Under the pieces are notes generated by a model. That model was given only the letters and a program-made list of their open reading frames with translations, was not told where the DNA came from and did no database searches. Both the position numbers and the translations under genes were made by a program. This document shows, in pieces, positions 5,333 through 60,600 of a stretch of 64,000 bases of DNA. Each line of letters begins with the position of its first letter. Within the stretch, counting starts at the first letter, position 1. The DNA is from Octopus vulgaris (lineage: Eukaryota), in NCBI GenBank assembly GCA_951406725.2, contig OX597831.1:54870001-54934000 (forward strand), written 5' to 3'.

Positions 5333-5523
5333 TAAAAGGAATTCCAACCTTGTCTGATTTTCACGTTTTATTTACAGTCTTATAATGATATAGTATAAGA
5401 TAATATAATATAATGAAATAAAATAAAATAATAGAATGTTAAATTCTGATTGAACTAGTACTTTCATGCATTAAATTCTGCAATCTTCAGGTTCATGTAG
5501 TAGTGGTGACAGTCATGCTTCAC

Positions 5524-20689: not shown

Positions 20690-22060
20690 CGATAGAGCAT
20701 CGGGCAAAATCCAATCTTAATGAAGGTGCGTGGGAAAGGGGAAAATAGGAATAGTAAAATTATCTGGTTCACACCACCTTACTCCTCCGAAGTGACCTTT
20801 AGTATAGGTAGATATTTCTTTTCACTTAATGATAGGCATTTTCCAATCAAAAATAATTATAGGAAGCTCTTTAATATGCATAACCTAAAAATTACTTTTA
20901 GTTCTACTACAAACTTTCAAAATATAATTGCAGACAACACACAAAAACAACAAAATGAAGTCGGCTGTTCCTGCAGAGTTAAAAATTTGTGTCCGCTAAA
21001 TGGAGCTTGTATGACCGAGGCCGTGATTTATGAAGCCACCGTAGACTCTACAACCACTAAGGACTTAGTTTCGTTAAAGAAATATGTGGGTCTCACAGAA
21101 GGAAATTTTAAAGTCAGGTTCAAAAATCATACCTTAAGCTTCAGACACTGGGATAAAAAGAAAACAACCAAATTATCCAGTTATATATAGTCCTTAAAAG
21201 AAAAAGGTGTCAGCTATAAGATTCACTGGAAGATCTTAACCGAAAGCCTTACACCAACGGTAGTGGAAAGTGCAGTCTTTGCGATAGGGAAAGATGGCTC
21301 ATCGGGAAAAGCAGCTTGGACCTCGCTACATGTCTAAATTCAAGAACTAAACTTTTTGGATCATGTCCACATATGGCAAAACATTTGTTACGTTTTTGCA
21401 CACCCCAAGATCACAGATAGAACCTGCTTTTTATATTATTTCCACGTACAAGCCTTTCATATGTCTGAACATTTCTTATATATTTCATATATATATTTTA
21501 TTGCTTTATATATCTTTTCTGTATATTATTTTTCACCCTTTATAATTGTCTAACTATATACGCGTGTAGTATATATCAACTCTGTATATGCCTGCATAAA
21601 TACATATGTACGAATGATTGTATATATACGAGTGTAAAACTTTACCTGTTGTACTTGTTTCCTTTCTTCATACATATATGCATGTATATACGTTTATATA
21701 TCTGCAGGTATAGATGTGTTTGACAGACAGGAGGGTGTATTTGTGTACATACATATATAACTCATATGTATATTCAAGTTTTGCGGCGAATGTGAATGTT
21801 TTACGGTTTATGTTTTTGCGTATGTGTTATTTGTATATACGTCTATATGCGTGTGTATGTGCATGTGCGTATAGACTACGTTTTGTATATCCGCGTATGT
21901 ATATGCATGCGCGTATAGAGATGTGTATATGAACATAATGATATGTGCATGGGTATATATACGTGTGTATGTGCGTGTATGCGTGTATTGTATGTATGTT
22001 TACATATGTATAGACATATATATATGTATGTTTGTATGTATATGTACAAGCGTGTGTGAG

Positions 22061-22400: not shown

Positions 22401-22904
22401 TTATTAATATATAAGGCATGCGCTTATATATATGTATATAATAAATTAATAAATAAAACATATGCATATATACAAACATATAAGTACGTACCAACCTCTA
22501 CATGTATATATACATGCATATATGGGTACAGGACACCAAAAAAAAAACGTCGAACACAATGAGAAACGAAAACATAAACACAAAACCAAGGAACTGGACA
22601 TTTTTCTTAAACAACGAAAAAATAGAGTACAGGACAAATAACACAAGGAAAATTCCCCTTCTTCAGTCGTCATTGTTTCATCTACTCTGCGTTTCGAAGG
22701 TGAAGGCGATACGCATCTCCGATAGAAACTTTCCTGCCCGCGAAAAGCACACATATATATACATATATATGTATATATATATACATATATATGTATATAT
22801 ATGCATATATATATGTGTGTGTGTGTGTGTGTGTATTTTATTAACTTGCCCGTACGTTTGCTACTAGAGATTGTATTTTGATAATACTCTCACTCTCATA
22901 TTTA

Positions 22905-23494: not shown

Positions 23495-23563
<69 letters not shown>

Positions 23564-23571
<8 letters not shown>

Positions 23572-25037
23572 ATTAGGGTGTCTAAAAGACACCAACATGC
23601 CGAAATAGCAGTCGAAACACTGACTATAGTACCACGTTAAATGTTCATATCGCACCATGAGGTAAAGCGGAGGGACAAAACATACAAGCAAAAATTATTG
23701 AATAATTCAAGATCCAAGGATTTCTGGTTCTGCTTTAGATAAGCTTTACCGTCATCAATTGAATATATCAAGGGTACATAAATACAGATATATATATGCA
23801 CAGCAAACGATATACTTACATATACGAGCGCCGTACATACATACATATGCACGTATGGACACAGCCAGTATGAATCGCCCGCCAAATCACCGCATAAGTA
23901 CGATATGGTTAAAATAAGCACCGCAGTGAATATAATAACGTATTATATAAATTTATATATGAGGATAATATCGATATTTAAGTGTCGAAATTATCAAGTG
24001 GCCAGCATGAAAGAAATACCTTACAAAGGTAAAAAAATTTTTAACAATTAAAAATGAGGGTCTCTAAAAGACACCAACATGCCGAAATAGCAGTCGAAAC
24101 ACTGACTATAGTACCACGTTAAATGTTCATATCGCACCATGAGGTAAAGCGGAGGGACAAAACATACAAGCAAAAATTATTGAATAATTCAAGATCCAAG
24201 GATTTCTGGTTCTGCTTTAGATAAGCTTTACCGTCATCAATTGAATATATCAAGGGTACATAAATACGGTAAAGCTTATCTAAAGCAGAACCAGAAATCC
24301 TTGGATCTTGAATTATTCAATAATTTTTGCTTGTATGTTTTGTCCCTCCGCTTTACCCCATGGTGCGATATGAACATTTAACGTGGTACTATAGTCAGTG
24401 TTTCGACTGCTATTTCGGCATGTTGGTGTCTTTTAGACACCCTCATTTTTAATTGTTAAAAATTTTTTTACCTTTGTAAGGTATTTCTTTCATGCTGGCC
24501 ACTTGATAATTTCGACACTTAAATATCGATATTATCCTCATATATAAATTTATATAATTCGTTATTATATTCACTGCGGTGCTTATTTTAACCATATCGT
24601 ACTTATGCGGTGATTTGGCGGGCGATTCATACTGGCTGTGTCCATACGTGCATATGTATGTATGTACGGCGCTCGTATATGTAAGTATATCGTTTGCTGT
24701 GCATATATATATCTGTATTTATGTACCCTTGATATATTCAATTGATGACGGTAAAGCTTATCTAAAGCAGAACCAGAAATCCTTGGATCTTGAATTATTC
24801 AATAATTTTTGCTTGTATGTTTTGTCCCTCCGCTTTACCTCATGGTGCGATATGAACATTTAACGTGGTACTATAGTCAGTGTTTCGACTGCTATTTCGG
24901 CATGTTGGTGTCTTTTAGACACCCTCATTTTTAATTGTTAAAAATTTTTTTACCTTTGTAAGGTATTTCTTTCATGCTGGCCACTTGATAATTTCGACAC
25001 TTAAATATCGATATTATCCTCATATATAAATTTATAT
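23564..25037. repeat. Palindromic array of 482-bp hammerhead-containing units
   Basis: Left arm 23564-24234 and right arm 24266-24936 are near-perfect reverse complements around a 31-nt spacer. Each arm has an internal 482-bp period (23564/24046; 24266/24748). Confidence 0.93.
24736..24795 (+). ncRNA. Type I hammerhead-like motif; minus-strand copies at 23705-23764 and 24187-24246
   Basis: attcaa | TTGATGA | c ggt...acc a | GAAA | tcc tt gga | TC | ttgaat. Stem I is 6 bp, cleavage triplet AUC, and C3 is replaced by U. Confidence 0.55.
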
Positions 25038-25133
25038 ATATATATATATATATATATTAGACAAAATGAGATAACAAAGCCAAGGCTGTGAGGAGTTTTC
25101 AGGACATTTACAAGGAAAAAGATAATATTTATA

Positions 25134-25181: not shown

Positions 25182-25696
25182 GATGCGAGATGGTTAGATA
25201 GAGGTAAATATTTGAGCTCAAAATAAGGAATTATTATGGAAAAGAAGGAAATAGGGAATATAGAGGGAAATCAGAGAATGAAAGTACATATAAAATACAA
25301 GATACATAAAGATATTGTAGTTGCATTTCCATTATTCGAGGAAAGTGGAGTATAGAAGTGGTAATAAAGTTTCCTGAACATGGTATGTATGTTCCAATAG
25401 TAGTCCATGTTTAGTCATTTCAAAGTATGGAGTCGAGGATTCTGTGTTGTTCATTCATATTGTTCATATATATATATATATATATAATTGCAGCGTGGAA
25501 GGTGTTTGTAAGCCATTTAAAAAACACACAAAAGCCGTTCGATTCACTTCAACATTTGTTAACCGTAAATGTTGAAGTGAATCGAACGGCTTTTTGTGTG
25601 TTTCTTAAATGGCTTACAAACACATTCCACGCTGCAATTGTTTTCGTTTCAGCACACGATCTCAGATCAAATCACTTGCTATGCGAGTACATCTCC

Positions 25697-25764
<68 letters not shown>

Positions 25765-56127: not shown

Positions 56128-57221
56128 GTGAGCGTGTGTGTGTGCGTGTGTGTGTGCGTGTGTTTGTGTGAACGCGTGTGTGTGTGTTATGTGTGTATAC
56201 ATATATGCAAATGTGTATACGTGCGTATGTATGTATGTATGTATGTATGTATGTATGTATGTGTGTATGTGTGTATGTATGTATGTATGTATGTATGTAT
56301 GTGTACATGCATTTTTGTTTGTATGTATGTATATCCGAAAGACCAAATGAAAACATCATGTACTTTAAATAGACATCTAAAATGATTTAACGACAAATCA
56401 TGCTTTTCTATTTCGAAAAGATGACAGATCTCCGTGGAGCATCCGCTGTTTGACATCCACACATTCCAAATATTTACCTCGTTCTTATCCAACCCGCATA
56501 CCTACCAATCTACCTATTTACCAGCCTTTCTATTAACCTATCTACCTATCAAACTACAAACCTACCTACCTACCTGCCTATACGAACCAACGGGGAGACC
56601 TGGCAGAATGTCTCCGTGCCGGGAAAATAGCAGCATTTATTCCGACTTTACGTTCTGATTTCAAATCGCTCCGGGGTCGACTTTGCTTTTCATCCTTTCG
56701 GAGTCGATAAAATAAACACTAGTTGAGCACTGGGGTTAATTAATTGACTTTGACACTCTTCTAAAACTGCTGTTCTTGTGCCAATATTTGGAACCAATAT
56801 AATCAGAAATCATTAATATGATATCTTATTATATAATATAGCTGGTTAGAAGTAAGTATAATATATAAAACTTTGAAGGCGGTGAGCTGGCAGAAACGTT
56901 AGCAAGCCGGGCAAAATGATTAGCGGTATTTCGTCTGTTTTTACGTTCTGAGTTCAAATTCTGCCGAGGTCAACTTTACCTTCCATCCTTTCAAGTTCGA
57001 TAAATTAAGTATCAGTTGCGTACTGAGATCGATCTAATCGACAGATCCCCTCCCAAAAAATGTCGGGCCTTGTACCTAGAGTAGAAAAGAAGACATAAAA
57101 CTTTGATTACATGTATCCATAGTCTTGGAAAACCTTGGCAATGATATAAGCAGAAAGATTTCCAATTTGTGTACTTCTCTTGCTTTTGGTTTCAGTTTCG
57201 TTTTTTTTTTTCTTTTTCCAG

Positions 57222-57639
57222 GCGCTTATTCACAAATACAATGGATTATGTGGCGTCTGTGGAGACCCGTGGGATCAAAATCCACGGGACCATGAAAGGG
57301 GTGGAAAATATTATGAAGGATTCATAACAGCAAATTATGAGGAAGGATCAACAATTACAGCTGCAGTACAAGTAACTGCTAATCACAAAGGTTATTTTGA
57401 ATTTCGAATCTGCCCTTACGATAACCCTAAAGCTGGTGATATTGAATATTCAAATGGAAGCGATTTTGTTGAAGTTAGTCAATCGTGTTTGAACAAACAT
57501 CTGTTAACCATCGGTGAAACTAATGACACCAAATATTACATCCCACACACATCACCAGTTATGCTTAATAATATCTCCCTCAAACTACCAAGTGGTGTGG
57601 TCTGCAACAAATGCTTATTCCAATGGACGTACATAACCG
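57222..57639 (+). CDS. AA15-family LPMO, coding exon 2 (second brace His)
   Basis: Polypyrimidine tract and cAG end at 57221; phase 0 matches exon 1. Encodes NGLCGVCGDPW, HERGGKY, TANHKGYFEFRIC (His codon 57384-57386) and LPSGVVCNKCLFQWTYITG. Donor GTAAGT at 57640, phase 1. Confidence 0.95.
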
Positions 57640-60600
57640 GTAAGTACAATTGTCTGTTACCATGCATTAAATAAAAGAAGGCAATAATATCGGTATATTA
57701 AATTAAAAATGGTTTTTAATTATAAGTAATACTGAATTTCTAAATCTCTCGTAGAGACATGTACGGTGGTGGGGCGATAGAATGGTTGAATACTGTCAAT
57801 CTAACACGAACGTGACAGTAGGGGAGTACACCACCGCTGTATAGCCCTAGGAAGCATCGAACGCCTCCTGATGGCTTTGACACATTTTTCCCTGTGTCCT
57901 TATATACATTTACGAAGGGGATACAAACACCCATGATCTAAAAAATCAACATAGCCCTATTTTATCAGGTTTTTGAAAAAGGTTGTTTTGTTTTGTTTTA
58001 CATTGTTATTTTCCTTAAAGGAAACTATATAAATAAGGCATGTTCTAAAAGTACTTTCAGCGTTAAAGGTTTCGTGGTGGTTGTGTCGTTGTCTCTTAAT
58101 CCATTCGATCTTTGAGATACTACTCATCGCTCTGTTAAGATTGCACGGAACTTGAAGCACAGACCAGAAAGCTAATGAAACACTTGTCAGTTGTATGTTA
58201 CTGTTATTGCAGGTATCAACTATGAAAGTGATGTAAAGCAGCGAATTGGCAAGTTCGTTAGCGCGCAGGGCATAATTCTCAGCATTATTTCGTTCGTCTT
58301 TACGTACTGAGTTTAAATTCCGCCGAGGTCGACTTTGCCTTTCATCACTTCATGGTAGATAAAATAAGTGCCAGTTGAGTACTGGCATCGATGTAATAGA
58401 CTAGCCCCTCCCTCGAAGTTACTGGCTTTGTGCCAAAATTTGAAACGAAATATATTTTCATGATATAAATTGGTGCTAAGATAGCTTTTTGTCCTCGGTT
58501 TGTAACTAAGCAAGAGATACAATACAAACTATAATGAATCCTGAGCGAGATATGAATGGATGCATAGATCTTCGTAGTTCGACCGTGAGTATTCAATTTT
58601 ACCTAGTCGTCAAATTAACGTGGATGACTATTCGTAGACATATGTATCTTTAAAGTAATTCTGAAGAAGAATCAGTGTAACACATTGTACAGGTACAATT
58701 AATCCGACAGACTTCTATGCAGTTCCCATCAACCCAATTTTCACTCAGAAGGTGACTGGGCACTCCGTCGGTTACGACGAAGAGTGTTCCCAGTCGATTC
58801 AATCAACGGAACAGCCTGCTCGTGAAATTAACTAACAAGTGGTTGAACACTCCACAGACACGCTTGCCCTTAACGTAGTTCTCATGGAGATTCACATGAC
58901 AAGGCTGGCCCACTGAATTACAGGTGCTACCCATATTTGCCATCTGAGAGGACTGGAACAACGCGAAATAAAGTATCTGACACAAGGGCACAACGCACTG
59001 CCTGGAAGCGAACTCACAACCTTATGATCATGAGCCGAATACACATACAACACCAGGCGCATTCACTTTCACAAGGTATTGGTCGAGCCGGAGCAAGAGA
59101 AAACGACAATTGATCACAACACTTGCAATAAGATTAAACCTGGGAACCCGAGGTTGCAAGAACAAGATAAAAACGCTAAATGCATGACACTGATTTTATT
59201 TTTAATGGTTTAGTTTGAGGAAGAAAGGTAGCGCTAGTAATTCCCTTCTGGGCCTTGGTAGTTGATGGGAAAAAAGGAGAAAAATATTTTCAGATCAGTG
59301 ACCAGGACCCATTGCTTGCAAAAGAAGGAGCTCTGCTAAAAAGGACTCAAGGGTCATTGGTGAAGTTATTGATACAAAGATATTGATACCAGTAACTTAA
59401 TCAAAACTGAGCCATAACTGTGCTTTCTAAGTTTCAAATTGCTGAGGTGGAAACACAGAAGCAGTCATGGTTGCGTGGTTAAGAAACCCGCTTTGCATCC
59501 ACACGGTTCCAAGTTTAATCTTGCTGTGCAGCACCTTGTGCATTTTACTATAAACGAACCAATACCTATTTCTTTACTACCCACAAGGGGCTACACACAG
59601 AGGAGACAAACAAGGACAGACAAACGGATTAAGTCGATTATATCGACCCCAGTGCGTAACTGGTACTTATTTCGCCCGGCGTGCTAACGTTTCTGCCAGC
59701 GAACCAATACCTTTTAAGTGAATTTGGTAGACAGAAACTGTGTGGAAGCCCGTCATATATGTGCATGTGTATGCGTATCTTTGACAACTGCTGTCGGTTT
59801 GGTTTAGGTCCCCGTACATTAGCGGTTCTGCAAAAGAGACAGGCTTAAAAATTAAGTACTGGAGTCAATGATTTGTTCGACTAAATTCTTCAAGGCTACA
59901 CCTTAATGTCTAGACGGACCTGAAGCAGACTTAGAGTAAAGAGGGCATGTCATTAATAGGATCTTAAATGACGGCGAAAAAACTTGGACAAACCTGATTG
60001 ATCGATTGCCCAAAAGATTAATCAAACAATCAATTAGTTAATTGGTTAAATGGTCTACCAATTAATAAATAAGTAATAAAAAAAGTAAAAAAAGAACTAG
60101 TGCATGAGTTTTAGTTGGTTTTGCCCTAGGTCAACGCTGACTGGGCAGATGCATGCCTAAAGATGTCTGCAAGCCGTGATCAACCCGTCCTTTAAACAAT
60201 GTAAGATTAGATTATCTTGTGTCCTTTCGTTATTTAAAACCCAGCCGAGAGTGATTTGAAGGTGATTTAGTCAATACATCCAGCAGGTCATTACGCTGTT
60301 TAAGAATTTGGACCTGGAGATCTCCATTTCCAGCGACTTCTAGGGCCACCTCCCAGTGGTGTCGGGCGTCAACGAAGAGCCCTCGACTACAACAAGACGA
60401 CCAAAGTGCTTTTTTTTTCCAAGGTCTGGGGTGTCCCGCCCCTAAGCCCTAGACCATCACCTAATCACCCTTACCTGTCTTGTTGCTTAACAACAACAAC
60501 AGCAGGTCATTACAAAGAAATATAGACGTCTGTGGGGAAGGGAGTTGTTCTTTTTTTGTTTTTTTGTGGGTTTTTTTTTTTTTTGTCTTTTTTGCAAAAT

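Follow-up and report, generated by a model that had tools for sequence, protein, structure and literature searches.

What kind of element builds a large palindrome out of tandem units that carry hammerhead-shaped motifs, and how do two inverted arms arise from one such unit? The question is raised by a stretch of 64,000 nt from the Octopus vulgaris genome (assembly GCA_951406725.2, contig OX597831.1, positions 54,870,001 to 54,934,000 of the forward strand), hereafter the window, in which a reading of the sequence alone had proposed a retrozyme-like system. We find that the palindrome belongs to a family of young insertions, more than 130 of them, of a non-coding 482-nt repeat. The inverted-plus-tail anatomy known from Penelope-like elements (PLEs) is here carried by a non-coding unit. 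Taking the evidence together, we consider it reasonably likely that the repeat is a young non-coding variant of the retrozymes, mobilised by the reverse transcriptase (RT) and endonuclease of a PLE from a template that is a circular, partly A-to-I-edited RNA of the ribozyme strand.

Architecture of the palindrome

The inverted arms described by the sequence-only reading, 23564-24234 and 24266-24936, are indeed 671 nt long, 99 % identical and 31 nt apart, and the 482-nt direct period is present in the window. Complete hammerhead-shaped motifs also lie where they had been placed, two on the minus strand 482 nt from each other and one on the plus strand, and the truncated hammerhead at the inversion point is a 5'-truncated motif (24266..24313, plus strand) that opens arm B. 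The 31 nt do not form a spacer, as had been thought: the full arms run from 23564 to 24267 on the minus strand and from 24266 to 25038 on the plus strand and overlap by 2 nt, and the right arm closes with a 102-nt unmirrored tail at 24937-25038.

If unit position 1 is defined as the first base 3' of the predicted cut (24308 or 24790), arm A on the minus strand reads from unit position 408 round to about 147 (704 nt) and arm B on the plus strand from unit position 441 round to about 249 (773 nt). The outer ends of both arms border (TA)n. The unit copies in the window vary at only 4 unit columns, GC content is about 37 % outside the AT-rich parts, and no ORF of at least 120 aa lies over the element. 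The features of the locus are, in window coordinates:

23530..23563, no strand: (TA)n target, left flank
23564..24267, minus: arm A, 704 nt; outer end A at about 147, inner end at unit position 408
23705..23764, minus: hammerhead-shaped motif, outer copy of arm A
23711..24192, minus: full 482-nt unit within arm A
24187..24246, minus: hammerhead-shaped motif, inner copy of arm A
24266..24267, no strand: head-to-head junction, where the arms overlap by 2 nt (microhomology)
24266..25038, plus: arm B, 773 nt; inner end at unit position 441, outer end B at about 249
24266..24313, plus: 5'-truncated hammerhead, start of arm B
24308..24789, plus: complete 482-nt unit, the predicted monomer or circle, with a predicted cut site on either side; fold z -7.6
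24355..24679, plus: span of the family's recurrent A>G sites
24417..24497, plus: predicted three-hairpin multiloop, limits approximate, with end A in a hairpin loop
24736..24795, plus: type I hammerhead-shaped motif with U3 core and C.A mismatch under stem II, predicted cut after 24789
24937..25038, plus: unmirrored tail, 102 nt
25039..25057, no strand: (TA)n target, right flank

Elsewhere in the window, two small elements in AT-rich microsatellite (22510-22740 and 25488-25698, the latter containing a hairpin of about 95 nt) look by eye like PLE stumps, and an open frame at 57150-57674 on the plus strand matches Pfam LPMO_10 (E 1e-11) and is probably a host exon.

A young family of insertions

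A DNA search of the 2.8-Gb assembly with the unit returned at least 168 matches, mostly 95-100 % identical, from 40 scored places out of 1681 candidates. Two subfamily marker patterns have 157 and 147 exact matches, and these 304 matches genome-wide identify the unit as a multicopy family. A hammerhead pattern gave 218 exact matches across the genome and a reversed control gave 0, so that chance is no explanation.

We studied 131 loci, consisting of a first set of 79 (100 fetched, with same-place repeats removed and two edge-cut) and 52 further loci. Two head-to-head arms are present at 86 of them, a single arm at 42 and another layout at 3; the two-arm share is no estimate for the genome, since the first 30 loci were the best-scoring and two-arm loci were picked first in the second set. 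Copies diverge from their own column majorities by 0.7, 1.1 and 1.7 % according to subfamily. The layout of the unit recurs in two older families, which are 64-78 % alike, and their ends, where these could be seen, are similar. One insertion junction was met twice, at L099 (C29:12109148) and L244 (C29:11901109), 208 kb apart and in opposite orientation; L099 adjoins a run of N, and the pair looks like a segmental or assembly duplicate.

Two fixed ends, a tail and a (TA)n target

The outer ends of the arms fall into two clusters, A at about 147 nt and B at about 249 nt beyond the hammerhead cut site, the second of them blurred by TA homology. Among the 72 two-arm loci with classifiable ends (14 of the 86 have an unclassifiable end and are left out), 71 pair A with B, one pairs B with B and none pairs A with A. 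The head-to-head inverted copy with a one-ended tail that characterises a PLE-mobilised insertion is thus found at 71 of 72 loci. Both flanks are TA-rich at 70 of the 86 two-arm loci, as is the 3' flank at 27 of 27 one-arm loci of the first set; inside such (TA)n flanks a target-site duplication is not readable.

Published PLE insertions (PMC8557442 and PMC3846280, in the sections available) contain an inverted copy, target (TA)n and have a tail of 30-40 nt on one side, so this insertion anatomy is already known for PLEs. Experiments in vitro place the PLE tail in the interval that separates two start sites of the RT, and they show cutting and extension of both target strands (PMC11167929). 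The octopus genome itself has an intact PLE, with a 717-aa frame, whose ends are A+B at 17 of 17 classifiable two-arm loci, out of 23 loci looked at of which ten had been chosen as inverted pairs. Counted from the hammerhead-like motif of this PLE, the ends lie about 35 and 105 nt further on and leave a tail of about 70 nt.

The two fixed ends, the tail, the (TA)n target and the anatomy shared with an intact PLE support the earlier suggestion of mobilisation by PLE machinery, and the description of the repeat as a non-coding tandem type I hammerhead repeat holds as well. We conclude that the repeat is very probably a PLE-mobilised non-autonomous element.

Contigs of four sequencing runs, out of 24 listed, were also compared with the unit, and in three of these runs, which may be RNA, it is covered in 29 of 29 bins. 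The contigs of the three runs have loose ends into (TA)n at both fixed ends, and the unit may be present in them as read-through of genomic copies, or as DNA.

A hammerhead-shaped motif with a U3 core

The cores at 24742 (plus), 24240 (minus) and 23758 (minus) each have a 6-bp stem I, the sequence UUGAUGA and a C.A mismatch under stem II, and the AUC triplet of the plus-strand motif ends at 24789. Every unit contains three stems and the GA.GA/GAAA/UH core in type I topology. The canonical core C3 U4 G5 A6 N7 G8 A9 is absent, with U3 found in 188 of 189 units. The caveat raised earlier about the core was therefore right in that U3 and the stem II mismatch are present, but U3 is not decay of the window copy. 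The young family has it fixed, it is frequent in the oldest, and most rows of the middle family have C3. A natural U3 is reported as paired with A8 in the accessible part of PMC3088659, whereas it stands opposite G8 in the octopus unit. An Rfam comparison, proposed as a check, gave 93 matches at E<=5 with no hammerhead family among them.

Two-sided changes are seen at 9 of 17 pairs of the hammerhead stems across 26 sequences of the three families, a count inflated by related rows and including one row shortened by coordinates. Relative to shuffled sequences, the unit folds with a z of -7.6 on the plus strand and -4.1 on the minus strand. Folding predictions place the active state about 3.5 kcal/mol higher than the minimum. 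Stem I disappears from the prediction when downstream sequence is included, and a hairpin just past the cut competes with it. Self-cleavage could proceed slowly, with the help of a protein as for the anole PLE, or not at all. For the anole PLE, uncleaved RNA is the main substrate in vitro (PMC11167929), and eight of nine Xenopus retrozyme dimers were uncleaved in vitro (10.64898/2026.07.22.740005). The predicted multiloop around end A (24417..24497) is largely kept in the older families; covariation of its hairpins, at 7 of 30 pairs with two helices poorly aligned, is weaker than that of the ribozyme.

A minor variant with C at core positions 3 and 4 (24742-24743) occurs in run contigs and in one genomic unit and resembles the core of the 717-aa PLE. 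Hammerhead-shaped motifs unrelated to the unit were seen at L074:3956 and 4452 (496 nt apart) and in L222, L214, L183, L186 and L065; they include one inverted pair and probably belong to additional families of retrozymes or PLEs.

A template continuous across the cut site

Over 199 arms we counted 191 crossings of the cut site and a single stop at it, 0.9 stops being expected, which indicates that the template is continuous there. An excess of stops at the cut site, which had been suspected from three arms, was not upheld by these counts. More than 490 nt are spanned by 78 arms, the longest of which measures 1686 nt, for up to 3.5 laps, and no tandem run exceeds 4 units among 200 listed of the 304 marker matches. 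A 50:50 subfamily marker is concordant between laps in all 48 multi-lap arms and between arms at 66 of 67 two-arm loci; at L224 each arm comes from a different subfamily.

The junction at the cut site hardly varies, which speaks for a ligated circle rather than for jumps from end to end, and we believe that the template is probably a covalent circle. The available part of PMC7229834 presents both the circular template and the PLE partner of animal retrozymes as hypotheses. Rolling-circle reverse transcription followed by fold-back had been suggested for the window; a template that is continuous across the cut site, and probably circular, agrees with the first of these steps but the second fails, as described below.

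A>G changes as probable traces of RNA editing

Each locus entered the counts of changes once. They were taken on the ribozyme strand after exclusion of 11 subfamily columns, of three stretches rich in AT and of 8 nt at the arm ends. The first set of 79 loci has 107 A>G changes compared to 49 T>C (p = 5e-15), with no bias between C>T (53) and G>A (52), and the second set of 52 loci has 56 compared to 41 (p = 4e-5). Both sets summed give 163 A>G and 90 T>C on the ribozyme strand, where A makes up 37.5 % of A+T. The A>G excess is concentrated at few columns, and of the 12 variants that each subfamily has at two or more loci, eight are A>G (recurrent sites at window 24355, 24370, 24596, 24630, 24666, 24669, 24677 and 24679, which are unit positions 48, 63, 289, 323, 359, 362, 370 and 372). 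The window insertion itself has G at 24669 and at the corresponding site of its other arm.

Since post-insertion mutation is strand-symmetric, the A>G bias points to a change in the plus-strand RNA. Within one subfamily all four combinations are seen in 11 of 21 site pairs, so the A>G variants arose more than once. Seven of the sites were checked in the circle predicted for a natural copy; four pair with U, and one lies opposite A in a helix. A 3' G neighbour is a known preference of ADAR, and the A>G sites are without one. Overall, an ADAR origin of these changes appears quite likely. The 717-aa PLE has a weaker bias (52 compared to 24, A being 55 % of A+T, p = 0.012), and none was found in 12 middle-family rows, for which the stretch compared includes just two of the eight sites.

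There are 22 cases in which a multi-lap arm has any G at one of these sites, and in 19 of them the G is present on every lap, where independent laps would give about 8 %; other change types are concordant in only 25 of 148 lap pairs. The uniformity of G over laps suggests that a single unit was read repeatedly at some step of the lineage. The sites of this test were chosen on the first set, and the 52 added loci contained no further multi-lap arms with G. Both arms share the G in 22 of 34 cases. At L096 and L020 every lap of one arm has G and the other arm has A, as two template molecules would give. The difference between within-arm and cross-arm agreement (19/22 vs 22/34) is not significant (p = 0.12), and some of the G's may have been inherited from edited source loci.

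Other sources of the A/G differences were considered and set aside. CpG decay does not apply, as A is the majority letter and unit positions 359, 362 and 370 are, by eye, not CpG. RT error on each lap is ruled out by the agreement of laps, and homogenisation of laps at the DNA level is unlikely with the other changes mostly discordant. Among the titles and abstract openings searched, few of them from subscription papers, none dealt with retrozyme editing or with a PLE circular-RNA template containing inosine.

A different template could be an uncleaved linear multimer transcribed from genomic tandems, on which PLE twin priming would take place with a weak or dead ribozyme and with no circle needed. 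Read-through of the cut site fits this template equally, the U3 core and the unfavourable active fold are in its favour, as is the chief use of uncleaved RNA by the anole PLE in vitro (PMC11167929), and the 104 marker matches beyond the 200 whose runs were assessed could hold a long master array. Unit-by-unit editing of a multimer would mix the laps, yet 19 of 22 cases are uniform, and the edited sites are nearly unlinked, so that heavy editing of single molecules is no explanation. In addition, 5' truncation would shorten arrays in each generation, with none of more than 4 units among the matches listed, and the hammerhead stems covary across three families. We therefore regard the linear multimer as unlikely and the circle as the preferred template.

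Search for a partner PLE

The unit might instead be the terminal repeat of an autonomous PLE, with the loci as its 5'-truncated stumps. Their anatomy is identical to that of the stumps of the 717-aa PLE, and the partner search covered few of the many PLE families in the genome. Against this reading, the arms re-enter the same 482-nt unit for up to 3.5 laps and not an ORF, 40 PLE-type proteins compared with 60 loci of the two older families gave one weak match, and the PLE-type protein P0001 has three matches in the first 100 loci, all of them outside the arms. No autonomous ORF with RT and GIY-YIG was found in the unit or continuing from the arms, and no sequence link to a partner PLE in the 717-aa family, the 781-aa family, the GIY-YIG loci or the flanks of the older families. 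We consider a terminal repeat highly improbable, and a non-autonomous element remains our reading of the unit.

P0001, which we take to be a PLE protein from its RT and GIY-YIG motifs, a label also supported by tandem and inverted anatomy, matched no Pfam family at E<=0.1 and gave no useful match to a solved structure; it has 848 homologues, and the 120 listed are unnamed. The 717-aa PLE-type family (L139-L158 and L219-L221; e.g. L140:2641-4794, minus) is very young, with 0.38 % departure among copies, and 50 of its 68 scored matches are 717-aa frames without a stop. It has an exact tandem period of 2590 nt and, in nearly all copies seen, a hammerhead-like core CCGAAGA or CCGAUGA (C at position 4). 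A second young PLE-type family (L304-L321) combines a 781-aa frame containing RT and GIY-YIG with an overlapping upstream frame of up to 479 codons; its 3' UTR of about 1 kb has short repeats, a motif scan of this UTR gave no hammerhead, and its two ends lie about 44 nt apart in (TA)n. The window also contains a PLE-type endonuclease fragment with about 69 % protein identity to the 717-aa family (20696-21190, plus) and a hammerhead-shaped motif like the end of a third PLE family represented by L315 and L318 (about 5400-5500, minus).

Joining of the two arms

The step that failed is the one in which a single cDNA folds back or self-primes to give the inverted arm; self-priming on an antisense template has been proposed for the inverted PLE arm in the available part of PMC3846280. 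An arm A copied from B cannot reach further upstream than B, and an arm B copied from A must lie inside A. Out of 64 simple A+B loci, 22 fit A copied from B, 9 fit B copied from A and 33, with the window among them, fit neither. In the window, the left arm extends 33 nt further upstream than the right arm and the two have different fixed end sites, so neither was copied from the other. Inner ends at most 35 nt apart are slightly above chance (10/39, p = 0.04), as fold-back would have it. The edited sites differ between arms in 12 of 34 cases, however, the subfamily differs once (L224), and the excess on the ribozyme strand is of A>G and not T>C, which argues for a sense template. For half of the loci fold-back is already largely refuted, and we judge it highly improbable.

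Two separately primed cDNAs joined by microhomology fit both these counts and the overlaps at the joins. An overlap of at least 2 nt is seen in 28 of 46 direct joins, compared to 17 % for random pairs, although some overlaps may be inflated by BLAST end extension. Twin priming is in our opinion quite likely. The 5' ends of arms also pile up at unit positions 41-70 (window 24348-24377), with 31 seen compared to 15 expected; the pile-up coincides with a long predicted helix, and locus selection may contribute to it.

Long palindromes beside (TA)n are a known class of assembly or library fold-back artefact to which the window palindrome would belong by its form, but 86 comparable loci with fixed, unequal outer ends and centres that differ from locus to locus, the 4 columns that differ between copies in the window, and opposite-strand joints in contigs of the public run X15 as well allow us to dismiss that origin.

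Relation to known elements

Like the metazoan non-LTR retrozymes (PMC7229834, in the part available; 10.64898/2026.07.22.740005), the octopus family has a non-coding, low-GC tandem unit with a type I hammerhead shape, strong self-pairing and co-occurrence with PLEs. Its unit length of 482 nt compares with 170-400 nt in the available part of the former and 51-972 in the latter. The family differs in its fixed U3 core, in that no homologous pLTR was found, and in its dispersed inserts of 1-3.5 laps where the non-LTR retrozymes, in the text available, form long arrays. A term search of both papers found head-to-head arms, a tail, fixed ends and a (TA)n target not described for retrozymes.

The family shares with EN+ PLEs the inverted arm, the one-ended tail, the partial tandems and the microsatellite target (PMC3846280 and PMC8557442, available sections). 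Unlike these it has no ORF, its tail is about 100 nt rather than the 30-40 nt given there, and the pairing of one end of each kind is counted across 72 loci, which sets it apart from the EN+ PLEs in those sections. The Chlamys element MRC1 is similarly a non-autonomous PLE derivative with multicopy head-to-tail insertions; in the same available text of PMC8557442, elements of this type resemble their autonomous partner at the 3' end, whereas no such partner was found for the octopus unit, and the PLE clades with an N-terminal EN are without canonical hammerheads. A repeat annotation of the octopus (PMC13282606) gives recent PLE families and, in its accessible part, does not mention ribozymes or retrozymes. 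Titles and abstract openings, with few subscription papers among them, yielded none on octopus hammerhead ribozymes or on tailed inverted non-autonomous Penelope/pLTR elements.

In short, the family inserts like a PLE and is built like a non-LTR retrozyme. We file it as a variant of the latter because the canonical-core test failed and no partner was found.

A model of insertion and its implications

We propose that a locus with two ribozymes in tandem would be transcribed, and that slow or protein-assisted cleavage followed by ligation would yield a rod-like circle of 482 nt, in whose helices ADAR would edit a few A's. The PLE enzyme would then nick both strands of a (TA)n run, after which one 3' end would prime at about 147 (site A) and its counterpart at about 249 (site B). 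In going round the template each cDNA would complete up to 3.5 laps, mostly with a single molecule or source in use and at times with two. Joining of the cDNA ends by microhomology would produce the head-to-head insert with a tail at one end, and a single primed nick would produce a one-arm insert.

Tentatively, we advance a broader claim, for which the odds are a little short of even: that the genomic copies record RNA editing and thereby show twin-primed reverse transcription by a PLE, from two fixed sites, of a closed sense-strand retrozyme circle. If true, this would be sequence-level evidence for a circular template that has so far only been proposed in animal retrozymes, and it would settle the question of a sense or antisense template for the inverted PLE arm. 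It might also extend to autonomous PLEs, the exact 2590-nt period and the weaker A>G bias being those found here. The fixation of U3 in the youngest family and its frequency in the oldest raise the question of whether a damped ribozyme is perhaps favoured as a protection of the circle.

The case for a link between animal retrozymes and PLEs by way of RNA circles has drawn on their co-occurrence, on similarity of pLTRs and on a model that had been proposed; insertion anatomy now connects the two. The class is a known one, and the traces make the questions of the circle and of the strand directly testable, for which the family offers coordinates: the two sites where the RT would start and eight candidate positions of inosine, along with two PLE proteins that are intact in the same genome. 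Edited bases that act as barcodes of molecules in DNA copies would be applicable to any young structured retroelement.
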